Source: Auanema rhodensis (lineage: Eukaryota; Animalia; Nematoda). From it: a stretch of 64,000 bases of DNA. The stretch spans positions 7,874,001-7,938,000 of the forward strand of contig OZ059897.1 of assembly GCA_964057225.1 (NCBI GenBank). Reading direction: 5' to 3'. Made by a program: the position numbers and the translations under genes. This document shows positions 1 to 47,000 of this stretch, piece by piece. How positions within the stretch are numbered: the stretch's first letter is position 1; each line of letters opens with the position of its first letter. The notes under the pieces were generated by a model. That model was not told the DNA's origin. It searched no databases and saw only the letters and a list, made by a program, of their open reading frames with translations.

Positions 1-118
1 TCTCTTTTTGCTTCAACACCTTCTGAATCTGGATAAAGTACATTTTTGATATTTTCAAAGTGTGGACCCAATGACTTGTAGTTCGAACTTGATGTGCAAA
101 GATATAACGAGAGCGTCA

Positions 119-191: not shown

Positions 192-198
192 TCATCTC

Positions 199-203
199 TT
201 TTT
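199..203 (+). terminator. Pol III terminator T5 (representative; T7 in some units)
   Basis: TTTTT starts 8 nt after the discriminator base in nearly every unit. Confidence 0.85.
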
Positions 204-2834: not shown

Positions 2835-2907
2835 GCCCGCGTGGCCTAATGGATAAGGCGTCTGACTTCTAATCAGAAGATTGTCGGTTCGATCTCGGAC
2901 GTGGGCT
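2835..2907 (+). pseudogene. Variant tRNA-Arg copy with damaged T-stem/B box (GATCTCGGAC instead of GATCCCGGCC)
   Basis: Linked C61T and C65A changes. The same variant occurs in copies starting at 4969, 5939, 7685 and 9819. Confidence 0.55.
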
Positions 2908-16802: not shown

Positions 16803-16875
16803 GCCCGTGTGACCTAATGGATAAGGCGTCTGACTTCTAATCAGAAGATTGTCGGTTCGATCCCGGCCGTGGGCT
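16803..16875 (+). pseudogene. Variant tRNA-Arg copy GCCCGTGTGACC (C6T + G10A), first of many
   Basis: G10A breaks the G10-C25 D-stem pair and the A box, and C6T adds a second adjacent G-U in the acceptor stem. The variant recurs from 16.8 kb to about 60 kb. Confidence 0.55.
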
Positions 16876-25800: not shown

Positions 25801-28800
25801 CATCTCTTTTTGCTTCAACACCTTTTGAATCTGGATAAAGTACATTTCTGATATTTTCAAAGTGTGGACCCAATGACTTGTAGTTCGAACTTGATGTGCC
25901 AAGATATAACGAGAGCGTCAGCCCGCGTGGCCTAATGGATAAGGCGTCTGACTTCTAATCAGAAGATTGTCGGTTCGATCCCGGCCGTGGGCTTCATCTC
26001 TTTTTTCTTCAACACCTTTTGAATCTGGATAAAGTACATTTTTGATATTTTCAAAGTGTGGACCCAATGACTTGTAGTTCGAACTTGATATGCCAAGATA
26101 TAACGAGAGCGTCAGCCCGTGTGGCCTAATGGATAAGGCGTCTGACTTCTAATCAGAAGATTGTCGGTTCGATCCCGGCCGTGGGCTTCATCTCTTTTTG
26201 CTTCAACACCTTTTGAATCTGGATAAAGTACATTTCTGATATTTTCAAAGTGTGGACCCAATGACTTGTAGTTCGAACTTGATGTGCCAAGATATAACGA
26301 GAGCGTCAGCCCGCGTGGCCTAATGGATAAGGCGTCTGACTTCTAATCAGAAGATTGTCGGTTCGATCCCGGCCGTGGGCTTCATCTCTTTTTTCTTCAA
26401 CACCTTTTGAATCTGGATAAAGTACATTTCTGATATTTTCAAAGTCGGGACCCAATGACTTGTAGTTCGAACTTGATGTGCCAAGATATTAGGAGAGCGT
26501 CAGCCCGTGTGACCTAATGGATAAGGCGTCTGACTTCTAATCAGAAGATTGTCGGTTCGATCCCGGCCGTGGGCTTCATCTCTTTTTGCTTCAACACCTT
26601 TTGAATCTGGATAAAGTACATTTCTGATATTTTCAAAGTGTGGACCCAATGACTTGTAGTTCGAACTTGATGTGCCAAGATATTAGGAGAGCGTCAGCCC
26701 GCGTGGCCTAATGGATAAGGCGTCTGACTTCTAATCAGAAGATTGTCGGTTCGATCCCGGCCGTGGGCTTCATCTCTTTTTGCTTCAACACCTTTTGAAT
26801 CTGGATAAAGTACATTTCTGATATTTTCAAAGTGTGGACCCAATGACTTGTAGTTCGAACTTGATGTGCCAAGATATTAGGAGAGCGTCAGCCCGCGTGG
26901 CCTAATGGATAAGGCGTCTGACTTCTAATCAGAAGATTGTCGGTTCGATCCCGGCCGTGGGCTTCATCTCTTTTTGCTTCAACACCTTTTGAATCTGGAT
27001 AAAGTACATTTCTGATATTTTCAAAGTGTGGACCCAATGACTTGTAGTTCGAACTTGATGTGCCAAGATATAAAGAGAGCGTCAGCCCGCGTGGCCTAAT
27101 GGATAAGGCGTCTGACTTCTAATCAGAAGATTGTCGGTTCGATCCCGGCCGTGGGCTTCATCTCTTTTTGCTTCAACACCTTTTGAATCTGGATAAAGTA
27201 CATTTCTGATATTTTCAAATTGTGGACCCAATGACTTGTAGTTCGAACTTGATGTGCCAAGATATAACGAGAGCGTCAGCCCGTGTGACCTAATGGATAA
27301 GGCGTCTGACTTCTAATCAGAAGATTGTCGGTTCGATCCCGGCCGTGGGCTTCATCTCTTTTTGCTTCAACACCTTTTGAATCTGGATAAAGTACTTTTC
27401 TGATATTTTCAAACTCGGGACCCAATGACTTGTAGTTCGAACTTGATGTGCCAAGATATTAGGAGAGCGTCAGCCCGCGTGGCCTAATGGATAAGGCGTC
27501 TGACTTCTAATCAGAAGATTGTCGGTTCGATCCCGGCCGTGGGCTTCATCTCTTTTTGCTTCAACACCTTTTGAATCTGGATAAAGTACATTTCTGATAT
27601 TTTCAAAGTCGGGACCCAATGACTTGTAGTTCGAACTTGATGTGCCAAGATATAACGAGAGCGTCAGCCCGCGTGGCCTAATGGATAAGGCGTCTGACTT
27701 CTAATCAGAAGATTGTCGGTTCGATCCCGGCCGTGGGCTTCATCTCTTTTTGCTTCAACACCTTTTGAATCTGGATAAAGTACATTTCTGATATTTTCAA
27801 AGTGTGGACCCAATGACTTGTAGTTCGAACTTGATGTGCCAAGATATAACGAGAGCGTCAGCCCGCGTGGCCTAATGGATAAGGCGTCTGACTTCTAATC
27901 AGAAGATTGTCGGTTCGATCCCGGCCGTGGGCTTCATCTCTTTTTGCTTCAACACCTTTTGAATCTGGATAAAGTACATTTCTGATATTTTCAAAGTGTG
28001 GACCCAATGACTTGTAGTTCGAACTTGATGTGCCAAGATATAACGAGAGCGTCAGCCCGCGTGGCCTAATGGATAAGGCGTCTGACTTCTAATCAGAAGA
28101 TTGTCGGTTCGATCCCGGCCGTGGGCTTCATCTCTTTTTGCTTCAACACCTTTTGAATCTGGATAAAGTACATTTCTGATATTTTCAAAGTGTGGACCCA
28201 ATGACTTGTAGTTCGAACTTGATGTGCCAAGATATAACGAGAGCGTCAGCCCGCGTGGCCTAATGGATAAGGCGTCTGACTTCTAATCAGAAGATTGTCG
28301 GTTCGATCCCGGCCGTGGGCTTCATCTCTTTTTGCTTCAACACCTTTTGAATCTGGATAAAGTACATTTCTGATATTTTCAAAGTGTGGACCCAATGACT
28401 TGTAGTTCGAACTTGATGTGCCAAGATATAACGTGAGCGTCAGCCCGCGGGGCCTAATGGATAAGGCGTCTGACTTCTAATCAGAAGATTGTCGGTTCGA
28501 TCCCGGCCGTGGGCTTCATCTCTTTTTGCTTCAACACCTTTTGAATCTGGATAAAGTACATTTTTGATATTTTCAAATTGTGGACCCAATGACTTGTAGT
28601 TCGAACTTGATGTGCCAAGATATTAGGAGAGCGTCAGCCCGCGTGGCCTAATGGATAAGGCGTCTGACTTCTAATCAGAAGATTGTCGGTTCGATCCCGG
28701 CCGTGGGCTTCATCTCTTTTTGCTTCAACACCTTTTGAATCTGGATAAAGTACATTTTTGATATTTTCAAACTCGGGACCCAATGACTTGTAGTTCGAAC

Positions 28801-31740
28801 TTGATGTGCCAAGATATAAAGAGAGCGTCAGCCCGCGTGGCCTAATGGATAAGGCGTCTGACTTCTAATCAGAAGATTGTCGGTTCGATCCCGGCCGTGG
28901 GCTTCATCTCTTTTTGCTTCAACACCTTTTGAATCTGGATAAAGTACATTTTTGATATTTTCAAAGTCGGGACCCAATGACTTGTAGTTCGAACTTGATG
29001 TGCCAAGATATAAAGAGAGCGTCAGCCCGCGTGGCCTAATGGATAAGGCGTCTGACTTCTAATCAGAAGATTGTCGGTTCGATCCCGGCCGTGGGCTTCA
29101 TCTCTTTTTGCTTCAACACCTTTTGAATCTGGATAAAGTACATTTTTGATATTTTCAAATTGTGGACCCAATGACTTGTAGTTCGAACTTGATGTGCCAA
29201 GATATAACGAGAGCGTCAGCCCGCGTGGCCTAATGGATAAGGCGTCTGACTTCTAATCAGAAGATTGTCGGTTCGATCCCGGCCGTGGGCTTCATCTCTT
29301 TTTGCTTCAACACCTTTTGAATCTGGATAAAGTACATTTTTGATATTTTCAAAGTGTGGACCCAATGACTTGTAGTTCGAACTTGATGTGCCAAGATATA
29401 AAGAGAGCGTCAGCCCGCGTGGCCTAATGGATAAGGCGTCTGACTTCTAATCAGAAGATTGTCGGTTCGATCCCGGCCGTGGGCTTCATCTCTTTTTGCT
29501 TCAACACCTTTTGAATCTGGATAAAGTACATTTCTGATATTTTCAAATTGTGGACCCAATGACTTGTAGTTCGAACTTGATATGCCAAGATATTAGGAGA
29601 GCGTCAGCCCGCGTGGCCTAATGGATAAGGCGTCTGACTTCTAATCAGAAGATTGTCGGTTCGATCCCGGCCGTGGGCTTCATCTCTTTTTGCTTCAACA
29701 CCTTTTGAATCTGGATAAAGTACATTTTTGATATTTTCAAACTCGGGACCCAATGACTTGTAGTTCGAACTTGATGTGCCAAGATATAAAGAGAGCGTCA
29801 GCCCGCGTGGCCTAATGGATAAGGCGTCTGACTTCTAATCAGAAGATTGTCGGTTCGATCCCGGCCGTGGGCTTCATCTCTTTTTGCTTCAACACCTTTT
29901 GAATCTGGATAAAGTACATTTCTGATATTTTCAAAGTCGGGACCCAATGACTTGTAGTTCGAACTTGATGTGCCAAGATATTAGGAGAGCGTCAGCCCGC
30001 GTGGCCTAATGGATAAGGCGTCTGACTTCTAATCAGAAGATTGTCGGTTCGATCCCGGCCGTGGGCTTCATCTCTTTTTGCTTCAACACCTTTTGAATCT
30101 GGATAAAGTACATTTCTGATATTTTCAAAGTGTGGACCCAATGACTTGTAGTTCGAACTTGATGTGCCAAGATATAACGAGAGCGTCAGCCCGCGTGGCC
30201 TAATGGATAAGGCGTCTGACTTCTAATCAGAAGATTGTCGGTTCGATCCCGGCCGTGGGCTTCATCTCTTTTTTCTTCAACACCTTTTGAATCTGGATAA
30301 AGTACATTTTTGATATTTTCAAAGTGTGGACCCAATGACTTGTAGTTCGAACTTGATATGCCAAGATATAACGAGAGCGTCAGCCCGTGTGGCCTAATGG
30401 ATAAGGCGTCTGACTTCTAATCAGAAGATTGTCGGTTCGATCCCGGCCGTGGGCTTCATCTCTTTTTGCTTCAACACCTTTTGAATCTGGATAAAGTACA
30501 TTTCTGATATTTTCAAAGTGTGGACCCAATGACTTGTAGTTCGAACTTGATGTGCCAAGATATAACGAGAGCGTCAGCCCGCGTGGCCTAATGGATAAGG
30601 CGTCTGACTTCTAATCAGAAGATTGTCGGTTCGATCCCGGCCGTGGGCTTCATCTCTTTTTTCTTCAACACCTTTTGAATCTGGATAAAGTACATTTCTG
30701 ATATTTTCAAAGTCGGGACCCAATGACTTGTAGTTCGAACTTGATGTGCCAAGATATTAGGAGAGCGTCAGCCCGTGTGACCTAATGGATAAGGCGTCTG
30801 ACTTCTAATCAGAAGATTGTCGGTTCGATCCCGGCCGTGGGTTTCATCTCTTTTTGCTTCAACACCTTTTGAATCTGGATAAAGTACATTTCTGATATTT
30901 TCAAAGTGTGGACCCAATGACTTGTAGTTCGAACTTGATGTGCCAAGATATTAGGAGAGCGTCAGCCCGCGTGGCCTAATGGATAAGGCGTCTGACTTCT
31001 AATCAGAAGATTGTCGGTTCGATCCCGGCCGTGGGCTTCATCTCTTTTTGCTTCAACACCTTTTGAATCTGGATAAAGTACATTTCTGATATTTTCAAAG
31101 TGTGGACCCAATGACTTGTAGTTCGAACTTGATGTGCCAAGATATTAGGAGAGCGTCAGCCCGCGTGGCCTAATGGATAAGGCGTCTGACTTCTAATCAG
31201 AAGATTGTCGGTTCGATCCCGGCCGTGGGCTTCATCTCTTTTTGCTTCAACACCTTTTGAATCTGGATAAAGTACATTTCTGATATTTTCAAAGTGTGGA
31301 CCCAATGACTTGTAGTTCGAACTTGATGTGCCAAGATATAAAGAGAGCGTCAGCCCGCGTGGCCTAATGGATAAGGCGTCTGACTTCTAATCAGAAGATT
31401 GTCGGTTCGATCCCGGCCGTGGGCTTCATCTCTTTTTGCTTCAACACCTTTTGAATCTGGATAAAGTACATTTCTGATATTTTCAAATTGTGGACCCAAT
31501 GACTTGTAGTTCGAACTTGATGTGCCAAGATATAACGAGAGCGTCAGCCCGTGTGACCTAATGGATAAGGCGTCTGACTTCTAATCAGAAGATTGTCGGT
31601 TCGATCCCGGCCGTGGGCTTCATCTCTTTTTGCTTCAACACCTTTTGAATCTGGATAAAGTACTTTTCTGATATTTTCAAACTCGGGACCCAATGACTTG
31701 TAGTTCGAACTTGATGTGCCAAGATATTAGGAGAGCGTCA

Positions 31741-31813
31741 GCCCGCGTGGCCTAATGGATAAGGCGTCTGACTTCTAATCAGAAGATTGTCGGTTCGATC
31801 CCGGCCGTGGGCT
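31741..31813 (+). tRNA. tRNA-Arg-TCT: tRNA-Arg(TCT), last copy before the insertion
   Basis: Consensus sequence with an intact terminator. Confidence 0.95.
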
Positions 31814-31879
31814 TCATCTCTTTTTGCTTCAACACCTTTTGAATCTGGATAAAGTACATTTCTGATATTTTCAAAGTCG

Positions 31880-31883
31880 GGAC
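31880..31883. repeat. Target-site duplication GGAC (left)
   Basis: The empty site is TCAAAGTC-G-GGAC-CCAATG and GGAC flanks both ends of the element. The array phase shift across the insertion is 12075 = 12071 + 4. Confidence 0.85.
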
Positions 31884-32249
31884 CGTTCCATTATGCTCCT
31901 ACGTATATTGAACAGACCATTGTAGTCTGCTCAACTACGCGTATAGTATTCCATAAGTGTAGCGGTATGGAAACAGAGCATAAGGATTACATAAGATAAG
32001 GAAATATATAGGTTTATTATACACAATACAATATCATTACAATACATTAACACAAGGATAAAGTAAACTACATTTACAAGACAAAGACTAATATATAAGA
32101 TTAACTAAGTTAGATGCAAACCGTCCATGGGCTTGCAAAGGGGCGAACTCCCGAATAGGGGCATGAGGGAAGGCGGTGCCATTCCTCATTCCTCTAGTCG
32201 GTCTGGCTCTAACCCTGCAGTTACATATATAGAGTCTCCGAATGGAACG
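31884..32249 (-). repeat. 3' LTR, 366 bp, 9-bp terminal inverted repeat CGTTCCATT...AATGGAACG
   Basis: Direct repeat of 43589-43954; no differences found on base-by-base reading. Confidence 0.97.
32013..32018 (-). promoter_or_regulatory. Candidate polyadenylation signal AATAAA in the 3' LTR
   Basis: TTTATT on the + strand, about 130 nt before the LTR end in element orientation. Confidence 0.55.
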
Positions 32250-32251
32250 TG

Positions 32252-32260
32252 CCCTTTTTC
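32252..32260 (-). other. Polypurine tract GAAAAAGGG
   Basis: Purine run on the element strand, 2 nt upstream of the 3' LTR; rather short. Confidence 0.7.
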
Positions 32261-32953: not shown

Positions 32954-35900
32954 TTATTCTTCTTCATTCCTCGGAAGCCATATTTCGTCTTCATTTTCAT
33001 CTTCTGGCTCTGTATCTATGCTATCCTTGTTGTTCCTGTTGATCACTTCTATTATTTCGATGTCGCTATCTTCTTCTGCTTGACTTTCTCGAAACCTTGC
33101 GCGAGTGTTGTAAGAGATGTTTTGTGAAGCAGGAGAGAAGATTTTCAAGTTATCTTTGTGGATATCTTGTAGTTTTCCTGATGAATTTCTGATTTGAACT
33201 TTTGATCCTTCTACGTTGATGACTTCGCATGGTCCATCATAGCTTTTCCGAAGCTTTTGGCCGATTTGGTGTGATTTTATAGTCGTCATCACCATGTCGC
33301 CCGGTTGAATGTCTCTATGGTGTGCTCTTTGCGTTCTATCTTTCTTCTTTTTCGCATTTTCTTGATTTTTAGCTATGCGGTTCTTTATTATTTCGTCTCT
33401 CTTGTCCATATCTGGTCTTCTTTGGAGTAATTCTTCAGAAATTTCTTGAATTTTGGTGATCGTTTCTGGTAATTCAGCGTCCATTGACATTCTGCATTCT
33501 TTACCGAATAATGCAATGTATGGCGCAATCCCTGTAGTCGCGTGCTGAATATTGTTAATAGCAAAAGTGATTTTTGGTAATACAGTATCCCAGTCACTAA
33601 GGTCCTCTTTTAAGTAGTGGGTTAATCCTTCTTCGAGGGTTCGGTGAAGTCTTTCCACTTGTCCATTTGAGTTCTTTTGGTGTGGTAGTGTTGGTTCATG
33701 TTTGATTCCAAGTTTAGTACACATTTCTTCGAACTTTTTAGATACAAAGTTTGAACCTCTATCGGTGATCAAGCGATGGGGTGGTCCAAAAATGTAAACG
33801 AAATGTCTTAGAAATCGATCAATTGTGATTTCCGTTGTTATTTGTGGTACAGCAATTGTTGTTGACCATTTTGTAAATGCGTCTTGCATGGTAATGACGT
33901 AGGTACAGTTTCTTTTTGAAGGGGGAAATGGTCCCATTACGTCCATGTGGACTCGTTCAAATGGCTTGCTTGGTATCTCAAAATGACCTATTGGTTGTAC
34001 CGTCATGGAATGTGGATCTTTTTTTCTTTGAGCACATTTAATGCAGTTCTTGATGAATATAGTAATGTCGTTCTGCATATTTGTCCAATAGAATCTTCTT
34101 AGAATTGCTTCTTTTGTTTTAATAATTCCTTGATGTGCTGCAATTGTAGGATCCTCATGAAAAACTTTGATTATTTCCTCAATTATGGGGTGTTCTTGTG
34201 GTATTACGATAGCGGGTTGTGGCTTTTTGTCTGTTGGTTTTGTATAGAGCAAGTCATTTATGACACAATATCTGTCATTAGCTGTCATGTTCTTTTGTGC
34301 TCTATATTCAATCTCCGCTATCGTCCGTTTAATCCAAGGGGTGCTTAGTTGAATTTCCTTTATTGTTGGTGTATTTATGGCGTTAATGTGAATTTCTTCC
34401 ATTTTCTTCTTCTTTGTTTCCGGCTTAGCATCGTTAGCTTCTTCACCTATATATCGAGATAGAGCATCGCATACTTTATTTAATTGGCCTGCGCGATATT
34501 TTATTTCAATATCATATTCTTGGATGACCAGCTGGAACTTCGCAAGACGACCAAATAAGTCTCTGCGTGTCATTAAGCTGGTAAGAGGTCGATGGTCCGT
34601 AATACATATAGTATGAGTTCCAAGAATGTATGTACGGAATTGATTTAATGCATATACAAGGCCTAATGCTTCTATCTCGATTGGTGCGTAGTTACGTTCG
34701 GCTTTAACTAGTTTTCTGCTTGCAAATGCGATAGGGTGTAGATTTTTCAGAGGTTGTTTTGGATCTTCCGGTTGTAATAATACAGCACCTATGGCGATGT
34801 TACTACCGTCGCTTTCAACTATAAACAAGCGGTCCGATTTAGGTGGGCTTAAAACGGGTGCCTGTATTAAACTTCTTTTAAGGAGGTCTAAAGCTTCTTG
34901 ATGTTTGTTTTCCCATTTGAATTCAGTATCTGCCTTTGTCAGATCGTATAAAGGGCTTGCGATACGTGCAAAATCTTTCATGAATTTGCGAAAGAATCCA
35001 ACCATTCCCAAGAATGCTCGTACACCTGTTGCATTCTTTGGTGCCGGATAATCTTGTATGGCGGCGACTTTTTGAGGGTCAGGTTTTATACCTTGACGTC
35101 CTACAATAAGTCCTAGAAATTTCACTTCTGGTTGAGCAAAAGCGCATTTCTTAAGCTTTATCTTCATTCCCAATTCTTCTACTGCTTGCAGTAAATCATC
35201 GATATCTTTGAGATGTTGTTCTCTTGTATCAGATATAACTAATAGATCGTCCAAATAAACAAATAGTTTACAAGAACATTTACTTTGCAAATACCTTACT
35301 GCTGTTTGAAAGGTATGAGGGGCTCCACAAAGGCCCATCGGCATCCGTTTGTACTGGTATGTGCCGGATGTGGTCGTAAATGCTGTTAGTGGTCGATCTG
35401 ATTTTCTCAAGGATATTTGAAAAAATCCTGACACTAAATCGAAGTTTGAGAAAAATTGGGCGCCTGCTGCCAAATCAACTATGTCAGAAATGCTTGGAAT
35501 GACATAAGTTTGCTTGCGTGTGACATTATTTAAAGCTCGAAAATCTGTCACAAACCTATACGTGTCATCTTTCTTCTTAACTAGTACTACAGGGCTATTA
35601 AATAGAGATGTAGAAGGCTCTATTATGCCTTGCTCAAGCATTTCTTTGACTTGTTTTTCAATTTCTTCCTGTTTTCCTAAGGGAATACGTGTTATTCTCG
35701 GCTTTGGCATATCCATATCTGTTCTCAATGGTATGGTATGCTCTATAGGACCTTTAAATAAGCCTATTTTCCTGTCCTCGTTAAGAAATGCCTCACGATG
35801 GCTTTCAATTATTTTTGTAAGCTCATGTTTTTCTTCTTTCGTGAGATCAGCATTCTCTAGATCAAGATCTTTTATGAAGTCTCTTGGAAAATATGGTAGT

Positions 35901-38900
35901 TTACTCTCCCAATCGGCCTCTGGCGGAACATATGGTAGAATTGGCTTATGCTTAAAGGGTTCACAAGCCGGAATTTCTCCAATTATTGCCTGTCCGATGA
36001 CTGAATTAGCTTCCATAGCTATTGTTTCATCGGTATTGTTACGGAACATAACATATACTCCACTGGTATCACGAAACGCAGTTGGATATAATGATTTTAA
36101 TGCGCTTCCACTATCCCCTAAGACAACCACTTCGTTAGATTCTAGTGGTTTATCTGTCTTTATTGGGATAGGTGCCTCTTCATCAGGCTTTAATGTTTTT
36201 GTTCTTAAATTAATGATATTCACAGTTATCTCCGTATGCTTAATAGATTCGTTTCCTATTAATGGGATGGCATTGTTTCCAATCTCCAACCTCTTCTTGG
36301 ATGGTTTAAGGCTGACGTCGATGTTTTCGCTGTCAAGCGCTTTCATGAAATCTAGTCCAATTAAAGCGGGAGCAGGACAGTCATGATCGTTTGAGACCAA
36401 AAAGGTGTGTTCGATCTCGTAACCGGCAATTTCAATTACAAGATTTATCTTTCCATAAAATGTGAAAGTGGACTTGTTGGCTGCCATCGCTACTAAATGT
36501 CTCTTCTTGACATTTTCGGCCATGTTCAGATATTTGAGGGTGGAGAGCCTAACATATGACACTGATGAGCCTGAATCCCATAAAGCTAAAATCAGTTTAT
36601 CTTCAACTGATATATATATTAATGGTAACTTTGTTTCCGCTGATACAATAGAAGCAACAAATGGTATTGCGATTGGAATAAATGTTACTAAAGCAGGATA
36701 GTATTGCTTCATGATGTTATCTGGCATCTGTTGGTCTGGGCGGCTTACAAGTTCCAATGTTTCTTCATAGCTTGGGGGCTCATTATCTATTTCGTGGACA
36801 TGCATTACGGTTAGTGGAGTGGCTCTGAAGAACCAAAATTTAGCAACAACGAAAAGAATTATTAATACTGCGGCAATCGTAACCATTGATCCTATGAAGA
36901 TGAGTGTTCTCTCAATTGATCCTATTAGAAATTGCTTTACGCTAGTCCAGGCGGAAGTTGTGAACTCAGCTGCTTTAGAGATATAGTCACTGCCCTTTTT
37001 CAAAAGATTAAAGGCGGACGTAATTTTTGGATCGTTGTGAATAGTATGTAAAACATGGTTCTGTCGTATGGATGCTAAACTTGCTCCATATGCAATAGCT
37101 GTTGACATTGAGTAAACTCTCAATGATAAATTGGTGTATAAGTTAGCGCCTGTGAACTTTAAAGGTGTTAATTGGTGGTATTGCGCTTTATCAAAGAGTG
37201 ATATTGGTTTTACTTCAACCGATCCATTTATATTTATCCATTCTCCATTTTGATAGTATACATCTGTGGGTACATGTTCGCAATCTATCTCTTTTCCATG
37301 TGTTAATAAGTCTCTTGATCCTGGAGCAGCAAAATATAATCTCTCATCTTCTGTTATTACTGGTGTTTCCAAATAGCATGTATCATTGATCTTATGATTA
37401 TGATAAACAGCTTTAGGTTGAAGAGGTAGGCATATATGAACATGAACTATATCGCTGCCTACGAAACGGGCTGCAATATCCTCTCTTCCTAAAATAGTCC
37501 TCATTGCTATTGTAGGTTCTATGTGTAAAATAGAACGCCATAGCTCGAGGTATCTATTTTGAATCTCACATATGGATTCATAAGATTCCATGAAATGTTT
37601 CTGTAGCTCTTCTTGTATGAGTGTTGTTGTATATTGTAGATGATCTTGAGCTATTCTGCGAGATACGTTGAGGTTGAATTGTATTTCGTTGTTCACTTTT
37701 GACGCTGTATACGTTGCCTGAGCCTGAATTTCTCTGGTTTCTACGGGTGGAGATGATGTTCTTTGTTTCCTTAAGATTCGTGACGCCGTGTCAGTGACTG
37801 TTGCTAATGTTGTTGGCGAGAGAGTCGTAGTTATCGCGGCTGTTGTCGTCTCAACTGTGGTTGTCGTCGGAATCCGAGTCGTATGGCTTTTAGTTGTCTC
37901 CTGAACTAGTGAAGCGGGTTTGTCCGTTGTTGTCGTTAATGACAGTCTTCTAGTCAGATAAGGCGGTGTTTCAATATCCTCTAACAGTGGTAAAAATGTT
38001 TTTATAAGTAGCTGGCGTGTATCTGCGCTTGGGTTTTGAATGCGAGGGTGGGGCCCTATCGATATACCGTAGTTAGAATCTTTATCTCGATATAATTTGT
38101 TGGTATCTGGCACATTGATTGTTAATTGTCGGAACTTTTCATCATCTACGGCTGCTGCTGTTTTATTTGGCCTTATTACTCGCAATGTCATCAAGTTATG
38201 GTATAAGTAAAGAGTGTTTCTAAGTACTATACGCTCATCAGCATTGTCAGTTGTTAGAGTTGGTCGGATCGGCGGCATGTTCACAAAGGATTTTAAAACC
38301 TCTTGCCTTGATGGTACCGACAGATTGTTTTCAAATATTACCGGTGTATAAGCTAACTCCATCGCTATGCTTTCGGCTCTTTCACGGTAGGATCCGTCTT
38401 TTTCTAGCAGTTTTTCGTCAAATTCGTGTGCTGTTAATCTGTCACCTATCTGTTCTAATAATTGTTGTGAGGTTAAATACCGTATAGCGCCGCGAGTGGT
38501 TGCTGCCAGTTCCTTTTGCGCAAGAAAATAAAGTATTGCTTCCTCAGGGTCGTGTATTTCGTATGTTTGAAGGAAACGTTGTATGGATTTATCAGATACG
38601 GGACTTCTTAAGAAGAAATAAAACTTCTCGGGATGTGCTGAAACCCAGTCAATAATTGAATATGAAGGGTTGACAGCTCGTCTGGCCTTTATAAGCGGTA
38701 TTATCTGATAAATACCAGGATTACTCATCACCGGTCGTAAGAAAGGATAAGGACAAATATTTAATATTAAAGTTTCAAAATCTTCCTGTTTTTGTATCCA
38801 CTCCTTGTTTAATTCAACCGTGCATTCCGCAATTGCTCTTTTATCTCTTTTCGCCGGAAGTTTCTTATATTCTCTCTCTATTAAAACATGGATATTGGTG

Positions 38901-41659
38901 TCATTTGGGTACTGTGGTAAGAGAATGTAATTGCCAGTTGTGGTGTGGAAGATTGGCTGTTTAAAACAAGAAGATATTTGCTTCGGTATCTCTTTTTGAT
39001 CGATTACAAGGGCTGATTGAGTGGTTGGTAACAGAATAATGCCGTCTCCAATTATCACATCATATTCACTCATGTCGATATAGTTGCATCGATATTCATA
39101 AGGCTGTTTCTCCCATATGATGATTGAGGTATCTGATGCACATTCTCCATGATGCGCTAAGCATCCTTCAGTATTTAGTATTAAATTGGAGATTATAGTT
39201 TCATCTGGCATCCGTGTCATAACCCCTCTTTCGATAACCAATCTGGCTTTCTCTTCACATAGTTCATTATTAAAAGATCGGCCTGGCGAGAAGGAAGGCT
39301 CGTCAGTTGCATATGTTATGCTGTCGATCTTCTTTAATTCACTCCAATTCCATCTTCTATCTCTCACTGCCAGTCTGCATTCTGCAGCTGGTATCTTTTC
39401 AATTCTCGCTATCGTTGTATTGGTATCTCTAAGGAACAAAAGGTCTCTGATACACATTTTATGAATTTCTTTGGAGCATCTCCATGCATCCCATTCATGT
39501 GCCGTTTGATTCCTTGTATAAAGATGAACTTTTGTTCGTAAGATATGCTTTATTGGTGGTAATAAGCATTTTCGGAGAGATGGGGGACGGAGAAGGGCTC
39601 CTCCAGTAGCTTTAGTACATAGCTGGTATGCTTCAGCTGTTGTAACCAGTGATAAGATTACTGATAAAGCTACGGCTAAAGTCAAAGGAGATATCAGAGT
39701 CAAATTATTGACTCTTGAGCCTCTACCTCTGCCTCTATTGTTGTTATTTCCCCTAAAGGTACTGTTATTTCTCTGTCTATTATTGCTCATTTCTTGATTT
39801 TGTGATGCATTATGGCTTCTTTGATACCCATTTTGATTTTGATTCTGATAATTTCGACCGCGGTCACCAAAATTGCGGTTCCTAGCAAATGGGTTTTGGA
39901 AATTCCAGCCTTTTTGATTTTTTGAAAATTTATGATAATTTTGATTGTTTTGAAAGTTTGGATGATAATTGTTATAATTATTATAATTTTGATAATTTTT
40001 ATTATTAAAAGATTGATAACCTCTTGCCATACCTCTCCCACCATTGTTTCTGCGCGGGGGGAAAGTTCTTTCAATTGCGTTAACCAATAGCGCCTGAGGG
40101 TCTGCTACTTGGTTTGCAATTGATTCCTCCCAGCGAGCACTATCAACAGCCTCAGCAAAAGTTTTGGGTTTTGCTCGAATTACCCCTGGGCGTATCGTAT
40201 TTTTCAAGCCTCTCAAAAATGTGGACCTCAGAATGTGATCTTTATGAGTATCACTATTAGAGAAAGCATTTAAGCTGAGGTTTCTTAACGTTTGTGCAAA
40301 ACCATCAATTGATAAATCGCCTTGAGTGCTGTTTTGAAGTGTGATAAGGGCAGGGTCTTGATTGTATTCGGGACACAGCTTGGATGTTAACTCTTCTATT
40401 AGGGTAACCCAAGGTCCAGCAGTTCTGACCTTGTCAGGTAGCTCTAAATAAGCTTCCTCTGCTCTATCATTTTTCAATAGTAATGGTAAAATAGTTAGTC
40501 TTTCGGGCATCACTAAGCCTAAGGCGTTAGAAAAGGTATTAAACTTTGCCACGAAATCTCTAAAGTTACGACTTCCGTCGTATATGGGGCAATAAGGTGA
40601 GCTTAATGCGTGCGCAATGGTAGATTTACCAGCTCCCGGAAGACGTGGTGTCTCCGTCATGGTTGGTATATCCTCAGGGTATGTGCGAGATGACGTAATC
40701 CCTTTACTGCCTGAGCTTCTCGCCGTTAAATTCTTACCTCCCTTTTTCGAGTTACCAGATGTTGGATAACTAATGGTAGGGGCGGCTGAGGAGAACCGCT
40801 TCCCTGGGAGTTTGATAATTCGACTCGTTGCCTGAGGCGTCGAATGTATTGATACGCTTGAGCTGGGTATAGCGCTATCTGACTTATTAAGGGTTGGGTT
40901 GGAGGATACGTGAAGAGAGTTATCAACTTGTTCTGTTGTTACCTCCCCTGGAGACAAATTCAAAACTTTTATTAAGCGAGCTGTTAAAGATTTCTTACTT
41001 TTGAACTTATCAGTAGTTAGTGATAAGGGCAAAACTTCGGTAATTTCCTGATTTGGTTCTACGGGATTATTAGAGGTTGAGCGCCTACGCGGTGTATTAG
41101 TTTTTCTTTTATTAATTTTTTTAGAATCAAGCTTTTTCGAATCAAGCTTATCAGTGATAACTGATAAGGGTGATTTGCGAATAGTGAGAGATGAGGTTTT
41201 ATTAAGTTGTGAGTTTTCTATCGGAGTGGAAAATGCCTGCGGTGTTAGAGTTAGTTCAAAAGAAGATGCAAGATCGTTATCAGTATTAACTGATAAAGTT
41301 GATAAGTTTAGGTGGGGAGTGGCTGGTGAAGTATTAGAGGTTATTTGTTTTGGTTTTTGAATTTTTTGAATCTTTTTATTACTTTTAAAAGAGTGTACCT
41401 TTGGAGTTGAAGCTGAAGTTTGAATATTGTAGTCCTGAATATAGAAATCAGGGTCCTCCTCGGTGTTGTCCGGAGGTGAATACGTGCCTTCTCGAGGAAT
41501 GAAGGTTTTCTCGACTTTGGGTTTTACCTCTTGTTCAGGCTCTTCAATCTGAACACTGAGGAGTCGAGTGCGGCTTCTGGTTCGACTGGCGACTGCGATG
41601 TCGTCACTGGACTCAGAAGGGTATAGAGCAGGGACGGCCGAAGAGTATCTTCGTGCCAC
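32954..41659 (-). CDS. gag-env-pol: Gag-Env-Pol single polyprotein (2901 codons; true start uncertain: 41659 is GTG, first in-frame ATG is at 40660)
   Basis: Uninterrupted ORF containing capsid-like Gag, signal peptide, Cys-rich gB-like ectodomain, TM, protease DSG, RT YLDD, RNase H, and integrase HHCC + DD(35)E. Confidence 0.95.
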   Translation of the reverse strand: MARRYSSAVPALYPSESSDDIAVASRTRSRTRLLSVQIEEPEQEVKPKVEKTFIPREGTYSPPDNTEEDPDFYIQDYNIQTSASTPKVHSFKSNKKIQKIQKPKQITSNTSPATPHLNLSTLSVNTDNDLASSFELTLTPQAFSTPIENSQLNKTSSLTIRKSPLSVITDKLDSKKLDSKKINKRKTNTPRRRSTSNNPVEPNQEITEVLPLSLTTDKFKSKKSLTARLIKVLNLSPGEVTTEQVDNSLHVSSNPTLNKSDSAIPSSSVSIHSTPQATSRIIKLPGKRFSSAAPTISYPTSGNSKKGGKNLTARSSGSKGITSSRTYPEDIPTMTETPRLPGAGKSTIAHALSSPYCPIYDGSRNFRDFVAKFNTFSNALGLVMPERLTILPLLLKNDRAEEAYLELPDKVRTAGPWVTLIEELTSKLCPEYNQDPALITLQNSTQGDLSIDGFAQTLRNLSLNAFSNSDTHKDHILRSTFLRGLKNTIRPGVIRAKPKTFAEAVDSARWEESIANQVADPQALLVNAIERTFPPRRNNGGRGMARGYQSFNNKNYQNYNNYNNYHPNFQNNQNYHKFSKNQKGWNFQNPFARNRNFGDRGRNYQNQNQNGYQRSHNASQNQEMSNNRQRNNSTFRGNNNNRGRGRGSRVNNLTLISPLTLAVALSVILSLVTTAEAYQLCTKATGGALLRPPSLRKCLLPPIKHILRTKVHLYTRNQTAHEWDAWRCSKEIHKMCIRDLLFLRDTNTTIARIEKIPAAECRLAVRDRRWNWSELKKIDSITYATDEPSFSPGRSFNNELCEEKARLVIERGVMTRMPDETIISNLILNTEGCLAHHGECASDTSIIIWEKQPYEYRCNYIDMSEYDVIIGDGIILLPTTQSALVIDQKEIPKQISSCFKQPIFHTTTGNYILLPQYPNDTNIHVLIEREYKKLPAKRDKRAIAECTVELNKEWIQKQEDFETLILNICPYPFLRPVMSNPGIYQIIPLIKARRAVNPSYSIIDWVSAHPEKFYFFLRSPVSDKSIQRFLQTYEIHDPEEAILYFLAQKELAATTRGAIRYLTSQQLLEQIGDRLTAHEFDEKLLEKDGSYRERAESIAMELAYTPVIFENNLSVPSRQEVLKSFVNMPPIRPTLTTDNADERIVLRNTLYLYHNLMTLRVIRPNKTAAAVDDEKFRQLTINVPDTNKLYRDKDSNYGISIGPHPRIQNPSADTRQLLIKTFLPLLEDIETPPYLTRRLSLTTTTDKPASLVQETTKSHTTRIPTTTTVETTTAAITTTLSPTTLATVTDTASRILRKQRTSSPPVETREIQAQATYTASKVNNEIQFNLNVSRRIAQDHLQYTTTLIQEELQKHFMESYESICEIQNRYLELWRSILHIEPTIAMRTILGREDIAARFVGSDIVHVHICLPLQPKAVYHNHKINDTCYLETPVITEDERLYFAAPGSRDLLTHGKEIDCEHVPTDVYYQNGEWININGSVEVKPISLFDKAQYHQLTPLKFTGANLYTNLSLRVYSMSTAIAYGASLASIRQNHVLHTIHNDPKITSAFNLLKKGSDYISKAAEFTTSAWTSVKQFLIGSIERTLIFIGSMVTIAAVLIILFVVAKFWFFRATPLTVMHVHEIDNEPPSYEETLELVSRPDQQMPDNIMKQYYPALVTFIPIAIPFVASIVSAETKLPLIYISVEDKLILALWDSGSSVSYVRLSTLKYLNMAENVKKRHLVAMAANKSTFTFYGKINLVIEIAGYEIEHTFLVSNDHDCPAPALIGLDFMKALDSENIDVSLKPSKKRLEIGNNAIPLIGNESIKHTEITVNIINLRTKTLKPDEEAPIPIKTDKPLESNEVVVLGDSGSALKSLYPTAFRDTSGVYVMFRNNTDETIAMEANSVIGQAIIGEIPACEPFKHKPILPYVPPEADWESKLPYFPRDFIKDLDLENADLTKEEKHELTKIIESHREAFLNEDRKIGLFKGPIEHTIPLRTDMDMPKPRITRIPLGKQEEIEKQVKEMLEQGIIEPSTSLFNSPVVLVKKKDDTYRFVTDFRALNNVTRKQTYVIPSISDIVDLAAGAQFFSNFDLVSGFFQISLRKSDRPLTAFTTTSGTYQYKRMPMGLCGAPHTFQTAVRYLQSKCSCKLFVYLDDLLVISDTREQHLKDIDDLLQAVEELGMKIKLKKCAFAQPEVKFLGLIVGRQGIKPDPQKVAAIQDYPAPKNATGVRAFLGMVGFFRKFMKDFARIASPLYDLTKADTEFKWENKHQEALDLLKRSLIQAPVLSPPKSDRLFIVESDGSNIAIGAVLLQPEDPKQPLKNLHPIAFASRKLVKAERNYAPIEIEALGLVYALNQFRTYILGTHTICITDHRPLTSLMTRRDLFGRLAKFQLVIQEYDIEIKYRAGQLNKVCDALSRYIGEEANDAKPETKKKKMEEIHINAINTPTIKEIQLSTPWIKRTIAEIEYRAQKNMTANDRYCVINDLLYTKPTDKKPQPAIVIPQEHPIIEEIIKVFHEDPTIAAHQGIIKTKEAILRRFYWTNMQNDITIFIKNCIKCAQRKKDPHSMTVQPIGHFEIPSKPFERVHMDVMGPFPPSKRNCTYVITMQDAFTKWSTTIAVPQITTEITIDRFLRHFVYIFGPPHRLITDRGSNFVSKKFEEMCTKLGIKHEPTLPHQKNSNGQVERLHRTLEEGLTHYLKEDLSDWDTVLPKITFAINNIQHATTGIAPYIALFGKECRMSMDAELPETITKIQEISEELLQRRPDMDKRDEIIKNRIAKNQENAKKKKDRTQRAHHRDIQPGDMVMTTIKSHQIGQKLRKSYDGPCEVINVEGSKVQIRNSSGKLQDIHKDNLKIFSPASQNISYNTRARFRESQAEEDSDIEIIEVINRNNKDSIDTEPEDENEDEIWLPRNEEE
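33140..34160 (-). other. Integrase domain (approximate limits)
   Basis: HHCC (H2501...CIKC2542). Catalytic D2573 (HMDVMGP), D2633 (TDRGSNF) and E2669 (NGQVER), with 35 residues between the second D and E. C-terminal GPY/F-like module (GDMV...YDGPCEV) followed by an acidic tail; no chromodomain seen. Confidence 0.93.
34450..34830 (-). other. RNase H domain (approximate limits)
   Basis: ESDGSNIAIGAVL (D2284), ERNYAPIEIEALG, TDHRPL, NKVCDALSR. Confidence 0.92.
35080..35700 (-). other. Reverse transcriptase domain (approximate limits)
   Basis: SPVVLVKKKDDTYRFVTDFRALN, FDLVSGFFQI, RMPMGLCGAP, YLDD (35246-35257), VKFLG: Ty3/gypsy-type RT. Confidence 0.96.
36290..36622 (-). other. Aspartic protease domain (approximate limits)
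   Basis: LALWDSGSSVSY (D1695 at 36575-36577) and the downstream LIGLDFM motif. Confidence 0.9.
36827..39703 (-). other. env: Envelope glycoprotein, herpesvirus gB / class III fusogen-like, embedded between Gag and protease (aa 653-1611)
   Basis: Signal-like segment aa 653-677 ending AEA|YQLC, Cys-rich ectodomain with N-x-S/T sequons, furin site RDKR (38837-38848) and TM aa 1585-1606. CEIQNRYLELW..IEPTIAMRTILGREDIAARFVGSDIVHVHIC..CY..PV parallels the gB motif CELQN.EL.LW..NP.AIAS..GR.VSARMLGDVMAVSTC..CYSRP (recalled from HSV-1 gB). Confidence 0.85.
39704..40660 (-). other. gag: Gag: capsid-like region plus N/Q/RG-rich nucleocapsid substitute
   Basis: PIYDGSRNFRDFVAKF...QGDLSIDGFAQTLRNL...FLRGLK...PKTFAEAVDSAR is typical of Ty3/gypsy capsid. 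No CCHC knuckle follows it. Confidence 0.8.
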
Positions 41660-42071
41660 TTTGGAATCACTCTTGGTTCGGAAAAACCGCGAGTGTTTCG
41701 TTATATGGGGGATGTTGACGTTGAATGAGTGACAAGAAATTCGGGTCGGTTATAGGAAAAGTAAGAAACGTTTGAAGATTGAGACGTGGCGTCTTTCGCC
41801 GAGAATCGTTATTAGATGAGAAAGAGTTTTAAAATCTTGGCCTGAGATCTGGCTCCGCCTATCTACCGTATTCTCTTTTCTTTATTCTATTTCACAGATG
41901 TTCATCAATTATAAATTTTTTTGGTCTTCGCTCTTTCTAGCCTCAATCTTAATACTTTACTCTAATTGAATTCTTGAAAGTATGAGAGAGATTTTCAGTC
42001 GTTTTATGTCCCCTTTTTATGCATAAGAATCTTTATATTTGTAGAGCTGAAAAAAAAAAATAAATCAAAGA

Positions 42072-43575: not shown

Positions 43576-43588
43576 GGTGGAACCTCCA
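43576..43588 (-). other. Primer-binding site TGGAGGTTCCACC complementary to the tRNA-Gln 3' end
   Basis: Abuts the 5' LTR. The + strand GGTGGAACCTCCA equals the conserved metazoan tRNA-Gln 3' end (...GGTGGAACCT + CCA). Confidence 0.88.
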
Positions 43589-43954
43589 CGTTCCATTATG
43601 CTCCTACGTATATTGAACAGACCATTGTAGTCTGCTCAACTACGCGTATAGTATTCCATAAGTGTAGCGGTATGGAAACAGAGCATAAGGATTACATAAG
43701 ATAAGGAAATATATAGGTTTATTATACACAATACAATATCATTACAATACATTAACACAAGGATAAAGTAAACTACATTTACAAGACAAAGACTAATATA
43801 TAAGATTAACTAAGTTAGATGCAAACCGTCCATGGGCTTGCAAAGGGGCGAACTCCCGAATAGGGGCATGAGGGAAGGCGGTGCCATTCCTCATTCCTCT
43901 AGTCGGTCTGGCTCTAACCCTGCAGTTACATATATAGAGTCTCCGAATGGAACG
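43589..43954 (-). repeat. 5' LTR, 366 bp
   Basis: Identical to 31884-32249 and followed directly by the PBS in element orientation. Confidence 0.97.
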
Positions 43955-43958
43955 GGAC
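43955..43958. repeat. Target-site duplication GGAC (right)
   Basis: Matches 31880-31883. Confidence 0.85.
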
Positions 43959-44009
43959 CCAATGACTTGTAGTTCGAACTTGATGTGCCAAGATATAACG
44001 AGAGCGTCA

Positions 44010-44082
44010 GCCCGCGTGGCCTAATGGATAAGGCGTCTGACTTCTAATCAGAAGATTGTCGGTTCGATCCCGGCCGTGGGCT
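44010..44082 (+). tRNA. tRNA-Arg-TCT: tRNA-Arg(TCT), first copy after the insertion
   Basis: Consensus sequence; its 5' end is 56 bp from the last base of the element's 5' LTR. Confidence 0.95.
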
Positions 44083-47000
44083 TCATCTCTTTTTGCTTCA
44101 ACACCTTTTGAATCTGGATAAAGTACATTTCTGATATTTTCAAAGTGTGGACCCAATGACTTGTAGTTCGAACTTGATGTGCCAAGATATAACGAGAGCG
44201 TCAGCCCGCGTGGCCTAATGGATAAGGCGTCTGACTTCTAATCAGAAGATTGTCGGTTCGATCCCGGCCGTGGGCTTCATCTCTTTTTGCTTCAACACCT
44301 TTTGAATCTGGATAAAGTACATTTCTGATATTTTCAAAGTGTGGACCCAATGACTTGTAGTTCGAACTTGATGTGCCAAGATATAACGAGAGCGTCAGCC
44401 CGCGTGGCCTAATGGATAAGGCGTCTGACTTCTAATCAGAAGATTGTCGGTTCGATCCCGGCCGTGGGCTTCATCTCTTTTTGCTTCAACACCTTTTGAA
44501 TCTGGATAAAGTACATTTCTGATATTTTCAAAGTGTGGACCCAATGACTTGTAGTTCGAACTTGATGTGCCAAGATATAACGAGAGCGTCAGCCCGCGTG
44601 GCCTAATGGATAAGGCGTCTGACTTCTAATCAGAAGATTGTCGGTTCGATCCCGGCCGTGGGCTTCATCTCTTTTTGCTTCAACACCTTTTGAATCTGGA
44701 TAAAGTACATTTCTGATATTTTCAAAGTGTGGACCCAATGACTTGTAGTTCGAACTTGATGTGCCAAGATATAACGTGAGCGTCAGCCCGCGGGGCCTAA
44801 TGGATAAGGCGTCTGACTTCTAATCAGAAGATTGTCGGTTCGATCCCGGCCGTGGGCTTCATCTCTTTTTGCTTCAACACCTTTTGAATCTGGATAAAGT
44901 ACATTTTTGATATTTTCAAATTGTGGACCCAATGACTTGTAGTTCGAACTTGATGTGCCAAGATATTAGGAGAGCGTCAGCCCGCGTGGCCTAATGGATA
45001 AGGCGTCTGACTTCTAATCAGAAGATTGTCGGTTCGATCCCGGCCGTGGGCTTCATCTCTTTTTGCTTCAACACCTTTTGAATCTGGATAAAGTACATTT
45101 TTGATATTTTCAAACTCGGGACCCAATGACTTGTAGTTCGAACTTGATGTGCCAAGATATAAAGAGAGCGTCAGCCCGCGTGGCCTAATGGATAAGGCGT
45201 CTGACTTCTAATCAGAAGATTGTCGGTTCGATCCCGGCCGTGGGCTTCATCTCTTTTTGCTTCAACACCTTTTGAATCTGGATAAAGTACATTTTTGATA
45301 TTTTCAAAGTCGGGACCCAATGACTTGTAGTTCGAACTTGATGTGCCAAGATATAAAGAGAGCGTCAGCCCGCGTGGCCTAATGGATAAGGCGTCTGACT
45401 TCTAATCAGAAGATTGTCGGTTCGATCCCGGCCGTGGGCTTCATCTCTTTTTGCTTCAACACCTTTTGAATCTGGATAAAGTACATTTCTGATATTTTCA
45501 AATTGTGGACCCAATGACTTGTAGTTCGAACTTGATGTGCCAAGATATAACGAGAGCGTCAGCCCGCGTGGCCTAATGGATAAGGCGTCTGACTTCTAAT
45601 CAGAAGATTGTCGGTTCGATCCCGGCCGTGGGCTTCATCTCTTTTTGCTTCAACACCTTTTGAATCTGGATAAAGTACATTTCTGATATTTTCAAATTGT
45701 GGACCCAATGACTTGTAGTTCGAACTTGATGTGCCAAGATATTAGGAGAGCGTCAGCCCGCGTGGCCTAATGGATAAGGCGTCTGACTTCTAATCAGAAG
45801 ATTGTCGGTTCGATCCCGGCCGTGGGCTTCATCTCTTTTTGCTTCAACACCTTTTGAATCTGGATAAAGTACATTTCTGATATTTTCAAAGTGTGGACCC
45901 AATGACTTGTAGTTCGAACTTGATGTGCCAAGATATAACGAGAGCGTCAGCCCGCGTGGCCTAATGGATAAGGCGTCTGACTTCTAATCAGAGGATTGTC
46001 GGTTCGATCCCGGCCGTGGGCTTCATCTCTTTTTGCTTCAACACCTTTTGAATCTGGATAAAGTACATTTCTGATATTTTCAAAGTGTGGACCCAATGAC
46101 TTGTAGTTCGAACTTGATGTGCCAAGATATAACGTGAGCGTCAGCCCGCGTGGCCTAATGGATAAGGCGTCTGACTTCTAATCAGAAGATTGTCGGTTCG
46201 ATCCCGGCCGTGGGCTTCATCTCTTTTTGCTTCAACACCTTTTGAATCTGGATAAAGTACATTTCTGATATTTTCAAAGTGTGGACCCAATGACTTGTAG
46301 TTCGAACTTGATGTGCCAAGATATAACGAGAGCGTCAGCCCGCGTGGCCTAATGGATAAGGCGTCTGACTTCTAATCAGAAGATTGTCGGTTCGATCCCG
46401 GCCGTGGGCTTCATCTCTTTTTTCTTCAACACCTTTTGAATCTGGATAAAGTACATTTTTGATATTTTCAAAGTCGGGACCCAATGACTTGTAGTTCGAA
46501 CTTGATGTGCCAAGATATAACGAGAGCGTCAGCCCGTGTGACCTAATGGATAAGGCGTCTGACTTCTAATCAGAAGATTGTCGGTTCGATCCCGGCCGTG
46601 GGCTTCATCTCTTTTTGCTTCAACACCTTTTGAATCTGGATAAAGTACTTTTCTGATATTTTCAAATTGTGGACCCAATGACTTGTAGTTCGAACTTGAT
46701 GTGCCAAGATATTAGGAGAGCGTCAGCCCGCGTGGCCTAATGGATAAGGCGTCTGACTTCTAATCAGAAGATTGTCGGTTCGATCCCGGCCGTGGGCTTC
46801 ATCTCTTTTTGCTTCAACACCTTTTGAATCTGGATAAAGTACATTTCTGATATTTTCAAATTGTGGACCCAATGACTTGTAGTTCGAACTTGATGTGCCA
46901 AGATATTAGGAGAGCGTCAGCCCGCGTGGCCTAATGGATAAGGCGTCTGACTTCTAATCAGAAGATTGTCGGTTCGATCCCGGCCGTGGGCTTCATCTCT

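Follow-up and report, generated by a model that had tools for sequence, protein, structure and literature searches.

A 64,000-nt stretch of the Auanema rhodensis genome (GenBank assembly GCA_964057225.1, contig OZ059897.1, positions 7,874,001 to 7,938,000; hereafter the window) carries an intact 12,071-bp Ty3/gypsy long terminal repeat (LTR) element at 31884-43954, which makes up all of its non-repeat DNA. The element encodes Gag, then Env, then Pol in one minus-strand reading frame, and its Env is, by sequence and modeled structure, a class III fusogen of the glycoprotein B (gB) type. We propose, with reasonable confidence, that the precursor is likely threaded once through the membrane of the endoplasmic reticulum (ER) and that host and viral proteases likely cleave it into Gag and Pol in the cytosol and a membrane-anchored Env, with enveloped budding. 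The element belongs, with near certainty, to the nematode GAG-ENV-POL group.

One reading frame with a predicted class III Env between Gag and Pol

Residue 1 here is the opening codon, at 41749, of the stop-free frame (a preliminary description of the locus, made from the sequence, used numbers 30 lower). The frame stays open for 2,931 codons to a stop at 32954 and is the only open reading frame (ORF) of more than 300 aa in the window. Its parts follow the order Gag, signal, class III (gB-type) Env, transmembrane helix (TM), protease (PR), reverse transcriptase (RT), RNase H (RH), and integrase (IN), with Pfam spans for protease (aa 1714-1803), RT (2057-2215), RNase H (2279-2412), and integrase (2522-2690); the length of the frame and the domain order bear out the single Gag-Env-Pol frame of the preliminary description. 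That account put the start at 41659, which does not hold: the triplet there is GTG, no demonstrated start, the frame is open for 30 codons further, and its first ATG lies at 40660 (aa 364). The 363 codons ahead of this ATG are open beyond chance (none of 10,000 base shuffles was free of stops), have no homolog among the 151 proteins fetched as relatives, and may form an extension of their own, either spliced or started at a non-AUG codon. Counted from the first ATG, the length before the capsid is 21 aa, compared with 21 to 83 aa in 15 of 20 relatives. Gag has a weak Ty3 capsid match (PF19259, E 0.0038), as do many env-bearing relatives. A nucleocapsid (NC) had also been described; a basic Asn/Arg/Gly-rich stretch is indeed present, but the zinc knuckle is absent and Gag holds two Cys only. 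The P-loop-like GAGKST at aa 372 (AAA_18, E 0.08) was taken as a chance match.

Three kinds of search converge on the fold of Env. At aa 1368-1511 it matches the Monjiviricetes fusion glycoprotein (PF24664, E 5.7e-15) and herpesvirus gB (PF00606, E 6.4e-9), and solved gB sequences in the PDB match it weakly (best E 2.7e-4). A full Env model built on a 62-sequence alignment (mean predicted local distance difference test [pLDDT] 73, predicted template modeling score [pTM] 0.38) opens with a beta-rich N-terminal half; the helical insert comes next, then a stalk without order, a helix of 74 residues, and a crown of beta structure. Foldseek aligned this model with the G protein of Beihai rhabdo-like virus 3 (the best match, E 6e-15), Nyavirus G (E 8.5e-12), and herpes simplex virus gB (E 2.4e-10), and its matches include mononegaviral, nyamiviral, and chuviral glycoproteins. 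The fusogen call of the preliminary description, for which a check of the HHpred/Foldseek type had been suggested, is thus upheld by profile, PDB sequence, and structure search, and Env is a predicted class III (gB-type) fusogen. A hydropathy scan of the frame peaks at aa 684-702, 1617-1635, and 1686-1704. The first two peaks are the signal and TM foreseen earlier, and the AEA|YQ cut likewise lies where it was predicted (707/708); the third, ahead of the protease, was absent from that account. The ~900-aa Cys-rich ectodomain proposed there resolves into a pair of Cys-rich gB halves with 10 and 4 Cys, the first of them closed by a furin-type RDKR at aa 968-971, but it is interrupted by an insert of ~360 aa with 2 Cys.

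This insert is absent from most relatives, and the spacing between anchors in the two Env halves is 415 aa here versus a median of 48 aa (range, 10 to 506) across 82 proteins. Among the matches listed, long matches to the insert are confined to Auanema sp. JU1783 proteins and one unnamed fragment, and its first ~100 aa have weak matches in Caenorhabditis proteins. Modeled alone, it is all-helical (pLDDT 70, pTM 0.68). Searches for known relatives of the insert gave no Pfam family, no usable Atlas match, and 0 BFVD structure matches at E 0.001, and this missing fold match does not establish a new fold. Assignment as a death domain (best VIA Z 3.5 over ~63 residues) was judged not credible.

The order of genes is shared widely among relatives of the element. 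A HMMER-wide search with Env returned 295 matches at E 0.001, and our counts rest on the 150 listed plus one protein of Auanema sp. JU1783, P0001 (151 in total). Env and RT/RH/IN occur in one sequence in 39 of these proteins, 110 have env without pol, and 2 lack env at the threshold. Env comes first in 35 of the 39 and after integrase in the other 4. Gag-env-pol order, which the preliminary description had asked about as a possible mark of a clade, is on these sequences a clade feature. Of 31 proteins looked up (30 matches and P0001), 24 carry an organism name, and all 24 are from nematodes (Auanema, Caenorhabditis, Heterorhabditis, Diploscapter, Acrobeloides, and Aphelenchus); the closest relatives among the matches listed are Auanema and Caenorhabditis proteins. 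A quick-search RT tree of 52 rows, which holds no published elements and omits P0001 because its RT is truncated, joins the window with P0009 (Caenorhabditis japonica, 58% identity) and P0022 (Caenorhabditis nigoni, 56%) at an SH-aLRT of 99, with weak deeper forks. P0001 itself is colinear with the window from Gag through signal, Env, insert, TM, PPSY motif, and PR to RT, at identities of 57% (Env N-terminal half), 39% (insert), 53% (Env C-terminal half), 53% (PR), and 80% (RT, over 87 aa). This protein and the fragments P0002-P0005, P0055, P0076, and P0098 from the same species are annotated as unnamed and form a distinct family by sequence. A word-indexed search with Env alone gave nothing at E 0.01, Env was found in no viral contigs, and 80 metagenome loci with RT relatives (26 to 49% identity), many of them on short contigs, showed no env or gag at a tblastn E of 0.01.

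Read data place the element in several samples. Of the 15 runs listed, 11, which come from three studies and include one that is possibly the source of the window, hold 87 to 99% of its sampled words; runs under five coded organism names hold 93 to 99% of those in 33000-42500, which could reflect strains, relabeled samples, or sharing between close species. The gag-env junction is spanned by one DNA contig of an independent study, with one differing letter, and the env-PR junction by no single piece among those listed; P0001 contains both. The worry, voiced in the preliminary description, that the locus might be a misassembly or a one-off is countered by the runs, the spanning contig, and P0001. 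In contigs from RNA-type runs (a type guessed by the tool, as no run is on record as RNA), no env-skipping joint was listed, which carries no weight as evidence because cover of env there is thin or absent. One DNA run shows 16 coding differences: 11 lie outside the Thr-rich stalk and are synonymous with one exception, and the 5 within the stalk are all nonsynonymous, a pattern as expected if the predicted Env, including its insert, were under purifying selection. The env differences are clustered at 36794-38408, at ~25 to 45% of depth in that run and with amino acid changes concentrated in the Thr-rich stalk, which suggests that another allele or family of copies is present. Contig depth was higher over the 3′ third in two runs and was not used, as contig depth cannot rank regions.

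Proposed topology and processing of the precursor

Flanking hydrophobic segments are conserved around Env. One such segment lies ahead of Env in 49 of 54 relatives with enough upstream sequence, a TM is present in 35 of 37 env-to-PR linkers, and a second segment with a hydropathy of at least 2.0 follows the TM in just 2 of 35 linkers, this element being one of the two. These counts lend support to the signal/stop-transfer topology of the preliminary description. With a signal and one TM, Gag and Pol would be cytosolic and Env luminal. Gag would be made in the cytosol; the internal signal (aa 684-707) would then start translocation, signal peptidase would release the Env N terminus, and the TM would halt transfer and return the tail, PR, RT, RH, and IN to the cytosol. 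After a furin cut at RDKR, the subunit anchored in the membrane would begin with the helical insert.

The remaining cuts could be made by the viral protease. Motifs of the form [VI][NH]-x-[VIL] occur at four domain borders of the frame, namely capsid/NC (aa 556), NC/signal (680), the end of PR (1843), and RH/IN (2453), and 7 matches appear with a looser pattern; three of the four have aligned counterparts in P0001, whose sequence stops short of the fourth. Across relatives, 23 of 35 TM-to-PR linkers contain such a motif (1,000 shuffles: mean, 2.7; maximum, 8), as do 13 of 49 stretches of 60 aa ahead of the signal (shuffle mean, 1.0), with a density of 34 per 3,462 linker residues compared with 8 per 11,833 ectodomain residues. 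They are candidate viral protease sites at which Gag and Pol would be freed from the membrane. Cytosolic Gag tethered by the signal had been proposed earlier. We retain the cytosolic location, but a lasting tether is improbable: because a VN-x-L protease-type site adjoins the signal both here and in P0001, Gag is probably not left tethered. The viral protease would cut it loose from the membrane, by analogy with flavivirus capsid, which proteolysis detaches from its membrane anchor.

The Env tail carries PPSY, the sole PPxY of the ORF, 23 residues after the TM and common to P0001. PPxY and P[TS]AP are late domains that recruit ESCRT, and one or the other is found in 8 of 35 TM-to-PR linkers, this element included (shuffle mean, 0.7), compared with 1 in 11,833 ectodomain residues. 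PPSY is thus a putative late domain, which would recruit Nedd4/ESCRT for budding.

Several points weigh against this scheme. Its protein, cleavage, and particle steps rest on sequence. Translation of the frame may begin at the first ATG or upstream of it, and some relatives are eukaryotic gene models that possibly conceal introns or stops. The full Env model, at pTM 0.38, has TM-scores to gB of 0.2 to 0.3, and the match covers parts of the fold; herpesvirus gB, moreover, requires partner glycoproteins, according to the text consulted of PMC13524379. The protease motif was picked after these sequences had been viewed, so its enrichment is partly circular; relatives share ancestry, so motif counts are not independent; and the strict motif is absent from the TM-to-PR linkers of the window and P0001, which hold looser candidates only. 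Late-domain motifs are absent from 27 of the 35 linkers. Finally, the second hydrophobic segment of this element is the most hydrophobic of the set (2.39), and Pol would be luminal if it spanned the membrane.

Splicing or trans-splicing might instead yield separate mRNAs, for example an env-skipping Gag-Pol message, so that the full precursor would be minor and the ratio of products not the 1:1:1 put forward in the preliminary description. The nematode element Cer1 uses a spliced mRNA and is described as being without a true env in the text consulted of PMC10309623, the other strand of the present element has a working intron, and the 363 Met-free codons require a spliced or non-AUG start. However, the element has just two strong minus-strand acceptors (TTT[TC][CT]AG; 42047 and 35113), neither of which lies ahead of the protease, and protease-type sites and signal/TM spacing flank Env clade-wide, an arrangement needed by a precursor and not by separate mRNAs. 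We regard this alternative as possible but rather unlikely. Somewhat less likely still is an intracellular retrotransposon whose Env serves as a membrane anchor or assembly platform without membrane fusion. Fusion is deduced from sequence and fold, the ~360-aa insert breaks up the ectodomain, and most relatives have no recognizable late domain; against this, the Cys pattern, the furin site, and both gB halves are retained, env differences are mostly synonymous, and PPSY is common to the window and P0001.

That aa 1686-1704 acts as a second signal or TM, with Pol entering the ER in a topology unlike that first described, seems very improbable. The stretch has a hydropathy of 2.19 to 2.39 and a signal-like basic-hydrophobic-small pattern, but it holds prolines, reaches 1.61 to 1.94 in P0001 and at least 2.0 in just those 2 of 35 linkers, and falls where most relatives bear protease-type sites; luminal RT and integrase, moreover, could not work. 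An assembly chimera or one-off capture, which the lack of any single listed contig across the whole element or the env-PR junction might suggest, is largely refuted by 35 independent proteins with the same order, the colinearity of P0001 over both junctions, the presence of the element in DNA runs of three studies, and the published clade. A singly threaded, proteolytically processed precursor is the reading that we carry forward.

Element anatomy, antisense gene, and tRNA array

The element has two LTRs, a target-site duplication, a primer-binding site, and a polypurine tract (Table 1), and its PR-RT-RH-IN order and gypsy-type RT and RNase H (PF00078, PF17917, PF17919, PF17921, PF00665) are those of Ty3/gypsy elements (Metaviridae). 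The LTRs end in CG...CG (31884-31892, 43946-43954) and not in the canonical TG...CA, which is a usual rather than a defining trait; noncanonical LTR ends do occur among gypsy-type elements. The 9-bp inverted ends are perfect, and no spacer separates the 5′ LTR from the primer site. Because the LTRs are identical, we infer that the element inserted recently. By eye, the primer-site 12-mer equals the Gln_UUG_CUG entry of Clat_errantivirus_4 and Ctro_errantivirus_1. RNA-type contigs have loose ends at 43570 and 43603, flanking the LTR-end/primer-site region, which suggests that other elements of the same genome share this short stretch. Rfam gave no match within the element.

Table 1. Features of the Auanema rhodensis window (positions in the 64,000-nt stretch)
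Feature	Position	Strand	Remarks
Host flank, 194-bp tandem array, 164 units	1..31883	+	tRNA-Arg(UCU) gene per unit
Target-site duplication, 4 bp	31880-31883 (left copy); 43955..43958 (right copy)	.	Flanks compared with empty array units
3′ LTR, 366 bp	31884..32249	-	100% identical to 5′ LTR
Polypurine tract	32250..32260	-	Next to 3′ LTR
Integrase, to stop codon	32954..34186	-	HHCC, core, C-terminal region; PF17921, PF00665
RNase H	34514..34915	-	PF17917/PF17919
Reverse transcriptase core	35105..35581	-	YLDD; PF00078 E 6e-32
Degenerate dUTPase-like segment between PR and RT	35972..36199	-	PF00692 E 0.0023, below cutoff
Aspartic protease	36218..36652	-	DSG at aa 1725; PF13975 E 7e-4
Predicted cytosolic tail/linker	36653..36844	-	PPSY motif (36767-36778), shared with P0001; Pro-containing hydrophobic stretch
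Transmembrane (stop-transfer) helix	36845..36901	-	Hydropathy 2.95
Env C-terminal half	36902..37759	-	Long central helix, gB-type crown; PF24664 E 5.7e-15, PF00606 E 6.4e-9; PDB gB matches
Env insert, ~360 aa	37760..38836	-	Predicted helical domain of ~250-300 aa, Thr-rich stalk, second basic site; alone pLDDT 70, pTM 0.68
Env N-terminal half	38837..39628	-	Beta-rich, 10 Cys, C-terminal furin-type RDKR; model mostly pLDDT 80-95; 57% identity to P0001
Internal signal sequence	39629..39706	-	Hydropathy 2.24; protease-type VN-x-L before signal; predicted signal-peptidase cut before YQLC
Gag from first ATG	39707..40660	-	Capsid and basic Asn/Arg/Gly-rich NC-like region; PF19259 E 0.0038, below cutoff
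Leader in the Gag frame, 363 codons without stop or Met	40661..41749	-	35% Ser/Thr/Pro; 0/10,000 base shuffles stop-free
Antisense two-exon gene, 162 codons	42072..42605	+	Exon 42072-42191; 45-nt GT..AG intron 42192-42236; exon 42237-42605
Primer-binding site, tRNA-Gln type, 12-mer	43577..43588	-	Adjoins 5′ LTR directly
5′ LTR, 366 bp	43589..43954	-	Termini CG...CG, 9-bp inverted ends, 100% identical to 3′ LTR
Host flank, 194-bp tandem array continued, 103 units	43955..64000	+	tRNA-Arg(UCU) gene per unit

In the leader region, on the plus strand and thus opposite to gag-env-pol, the element carries a spliced gene. The intron joint was seen in all three RNA-type runs, which belong to one study, and a DNA-run contig is unspliced there. 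The intron holds an in-frame stop, and its removal joins 40 codons, which begin with the ATG at 42072, to a run of 122 codons that closes at 42605; an open run of 162 codons at one place has a chance of ~3e-5 by composition. A nematode-type acceptor (TTTTCAG) lies at 41998 and an AATAAA at 42622, and both the 45-nt intron and the TTTTCAG-type acceptor fit a nematode host. The protein had no homolog in a candidate search with exon 2 only (lengths 67 to 214), in Pfam, or among the 151 fetched proteins, and its best Atlas match (0.76) was a lead below chance level. We consider it likely, from these features, that the gene encodes a small accessory protein. The intron has presumably been kept because the strand packaged as genome is the opposite one, on which it would never be spliced. 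The range of accessory genes known so far would be modestly extended by an antisense gene with splicing in an LTR element of nematodes.

The element lies within an array of at least 267 tandem 194-bp units, which are 97 to 98% alike, include several spacer variants, and extend past both ends of the window. Every unit scanned (n = 15) has one tRNA-Arg(UCU) gene, and no description of a tandem tRNA-Arg array in nematodes was found by title in a search of the open-access literature. The insertion point is a 118-bp array spacer, where the element and a tRNA gene face each other head to head, the element lying ~55 bp upstream (43954-44009); a single insertion is uninformative on tRNA-gene targeting.

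Comparison with known systems

The preliminary description took the locus for the best candidate for an undescribed or little-described class of enveloped endogenous virus, but GAG-ENV-POL order and a gB-type Env are already published for nematodes: the text and tables consulted of Chary & Hayashi (eLife 2026, PMC13524379) report both in errantiviruses of Nematoda, Bryozoa, and Platyhelminthes and credit the nematode case to Sacco et al. 2022. An existing description of this kind is what the preliminary description had itself named as removing novelty. The nematode elements there and the one in the window are alike in having a Ty3/gypsy Pol, a gB-type Env encoded between gag and pol, and a tRNA-Gln primer-binding site. 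Of the 36 Nematoda rows in Supplementary file 1 of that paper, 8 have a tRNA-Gln primer, 2 of them with the 12-mer of the window, and LTRs of 370 to 424 bp in several Caenorhabditis rows are close to the 366 bp found here. By eye, Env resembles that of the Nematoda_C1 rows, and its N-terminal half resembles Clat_errantivirus_4 in Cys spacing and motifs. Both Auanema assemblies have ENV-POL hits in the genome table, though the element table is without an Auanema element. In the main text, a word search found no "antisense," "late domain," "polyprotein," "accessory," "single ORF," "splic," or "frameshift" (figures and most supplements may differ).

The features that assign the element to the nematode GAG-ENV-POL/NERV group are env between gag and pol, a gB-type class III Env with a signal on one side and a TM on the other, a tRNA-Gln primer site, and an RT that groups with those of nematode env-before-pol elements. 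The noncanonical nematode endogenous retroviruses of Sacco et al. (J Gen Virol 2022, doi 10.1099/jgv.0.001739) reportedly have a continuous gag-env-pro-pol ORF, a Nyamiviridae G-like env, and extra small ORFs; Nyavirus G was likewise found by structure search with the Env of this element. The gene order is known, and not found in print are the spliced antisense gene, the helical Env insert, and the tail late-domain motif; open-access text was searched for an antisense gene, a late domain, or a gB insert in such elements. A more speculative reading, which we hold to be possible though not probable, is that of an Auanema-type sublineage in which a furin-exposed helical gB domain of undescribed fold would be a built-in receptor-binding module (the role of herpesvirus gD/gH-gL), the budding signal would sit on the Env tail and not on Gag, and the intron-bearing antisense accessory gene would regulate the element or counter host silencing. 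The element is a clean specimen of its group, being intact, with identical LTRs, and turning up in several sets of DNA data and, in part, in RNA-type runs. It offers predictions on the expression, budding, and entry of gB-type errantiviruses, namely a cleavage map, a tail late domain, and a lineage-specific helical domain in gB.

Atlas virus and the nematode BEL/Pao elements, as presented in the text consulted of PMC9094657, are likewise nematode endogenous elements with a captured viral fusogen but differ in having BEL/Pao Pol, a phlebovirus-like class II envelope, and env after integrase. The part consulted of a preprint on Atlas capsids (bioRxiv 10.64898/2026.03.22.711591) has nothing on gag-env-pol order. 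The element in the window has neither env after integrase nor a class II envelope. In its predicted topology, it is closest to flavivirus and hepatitis C virus polyproteins, which have a cytosolic capsid, an internal signal, a luminal envelope, a stop-transfer segment, and cytosolic enzymes and are processed by viral and host proteases. Those viruses differ from the element in their unrelated proteins, class II fusogen, and RNA replication, and the likeness is one of analogy only.

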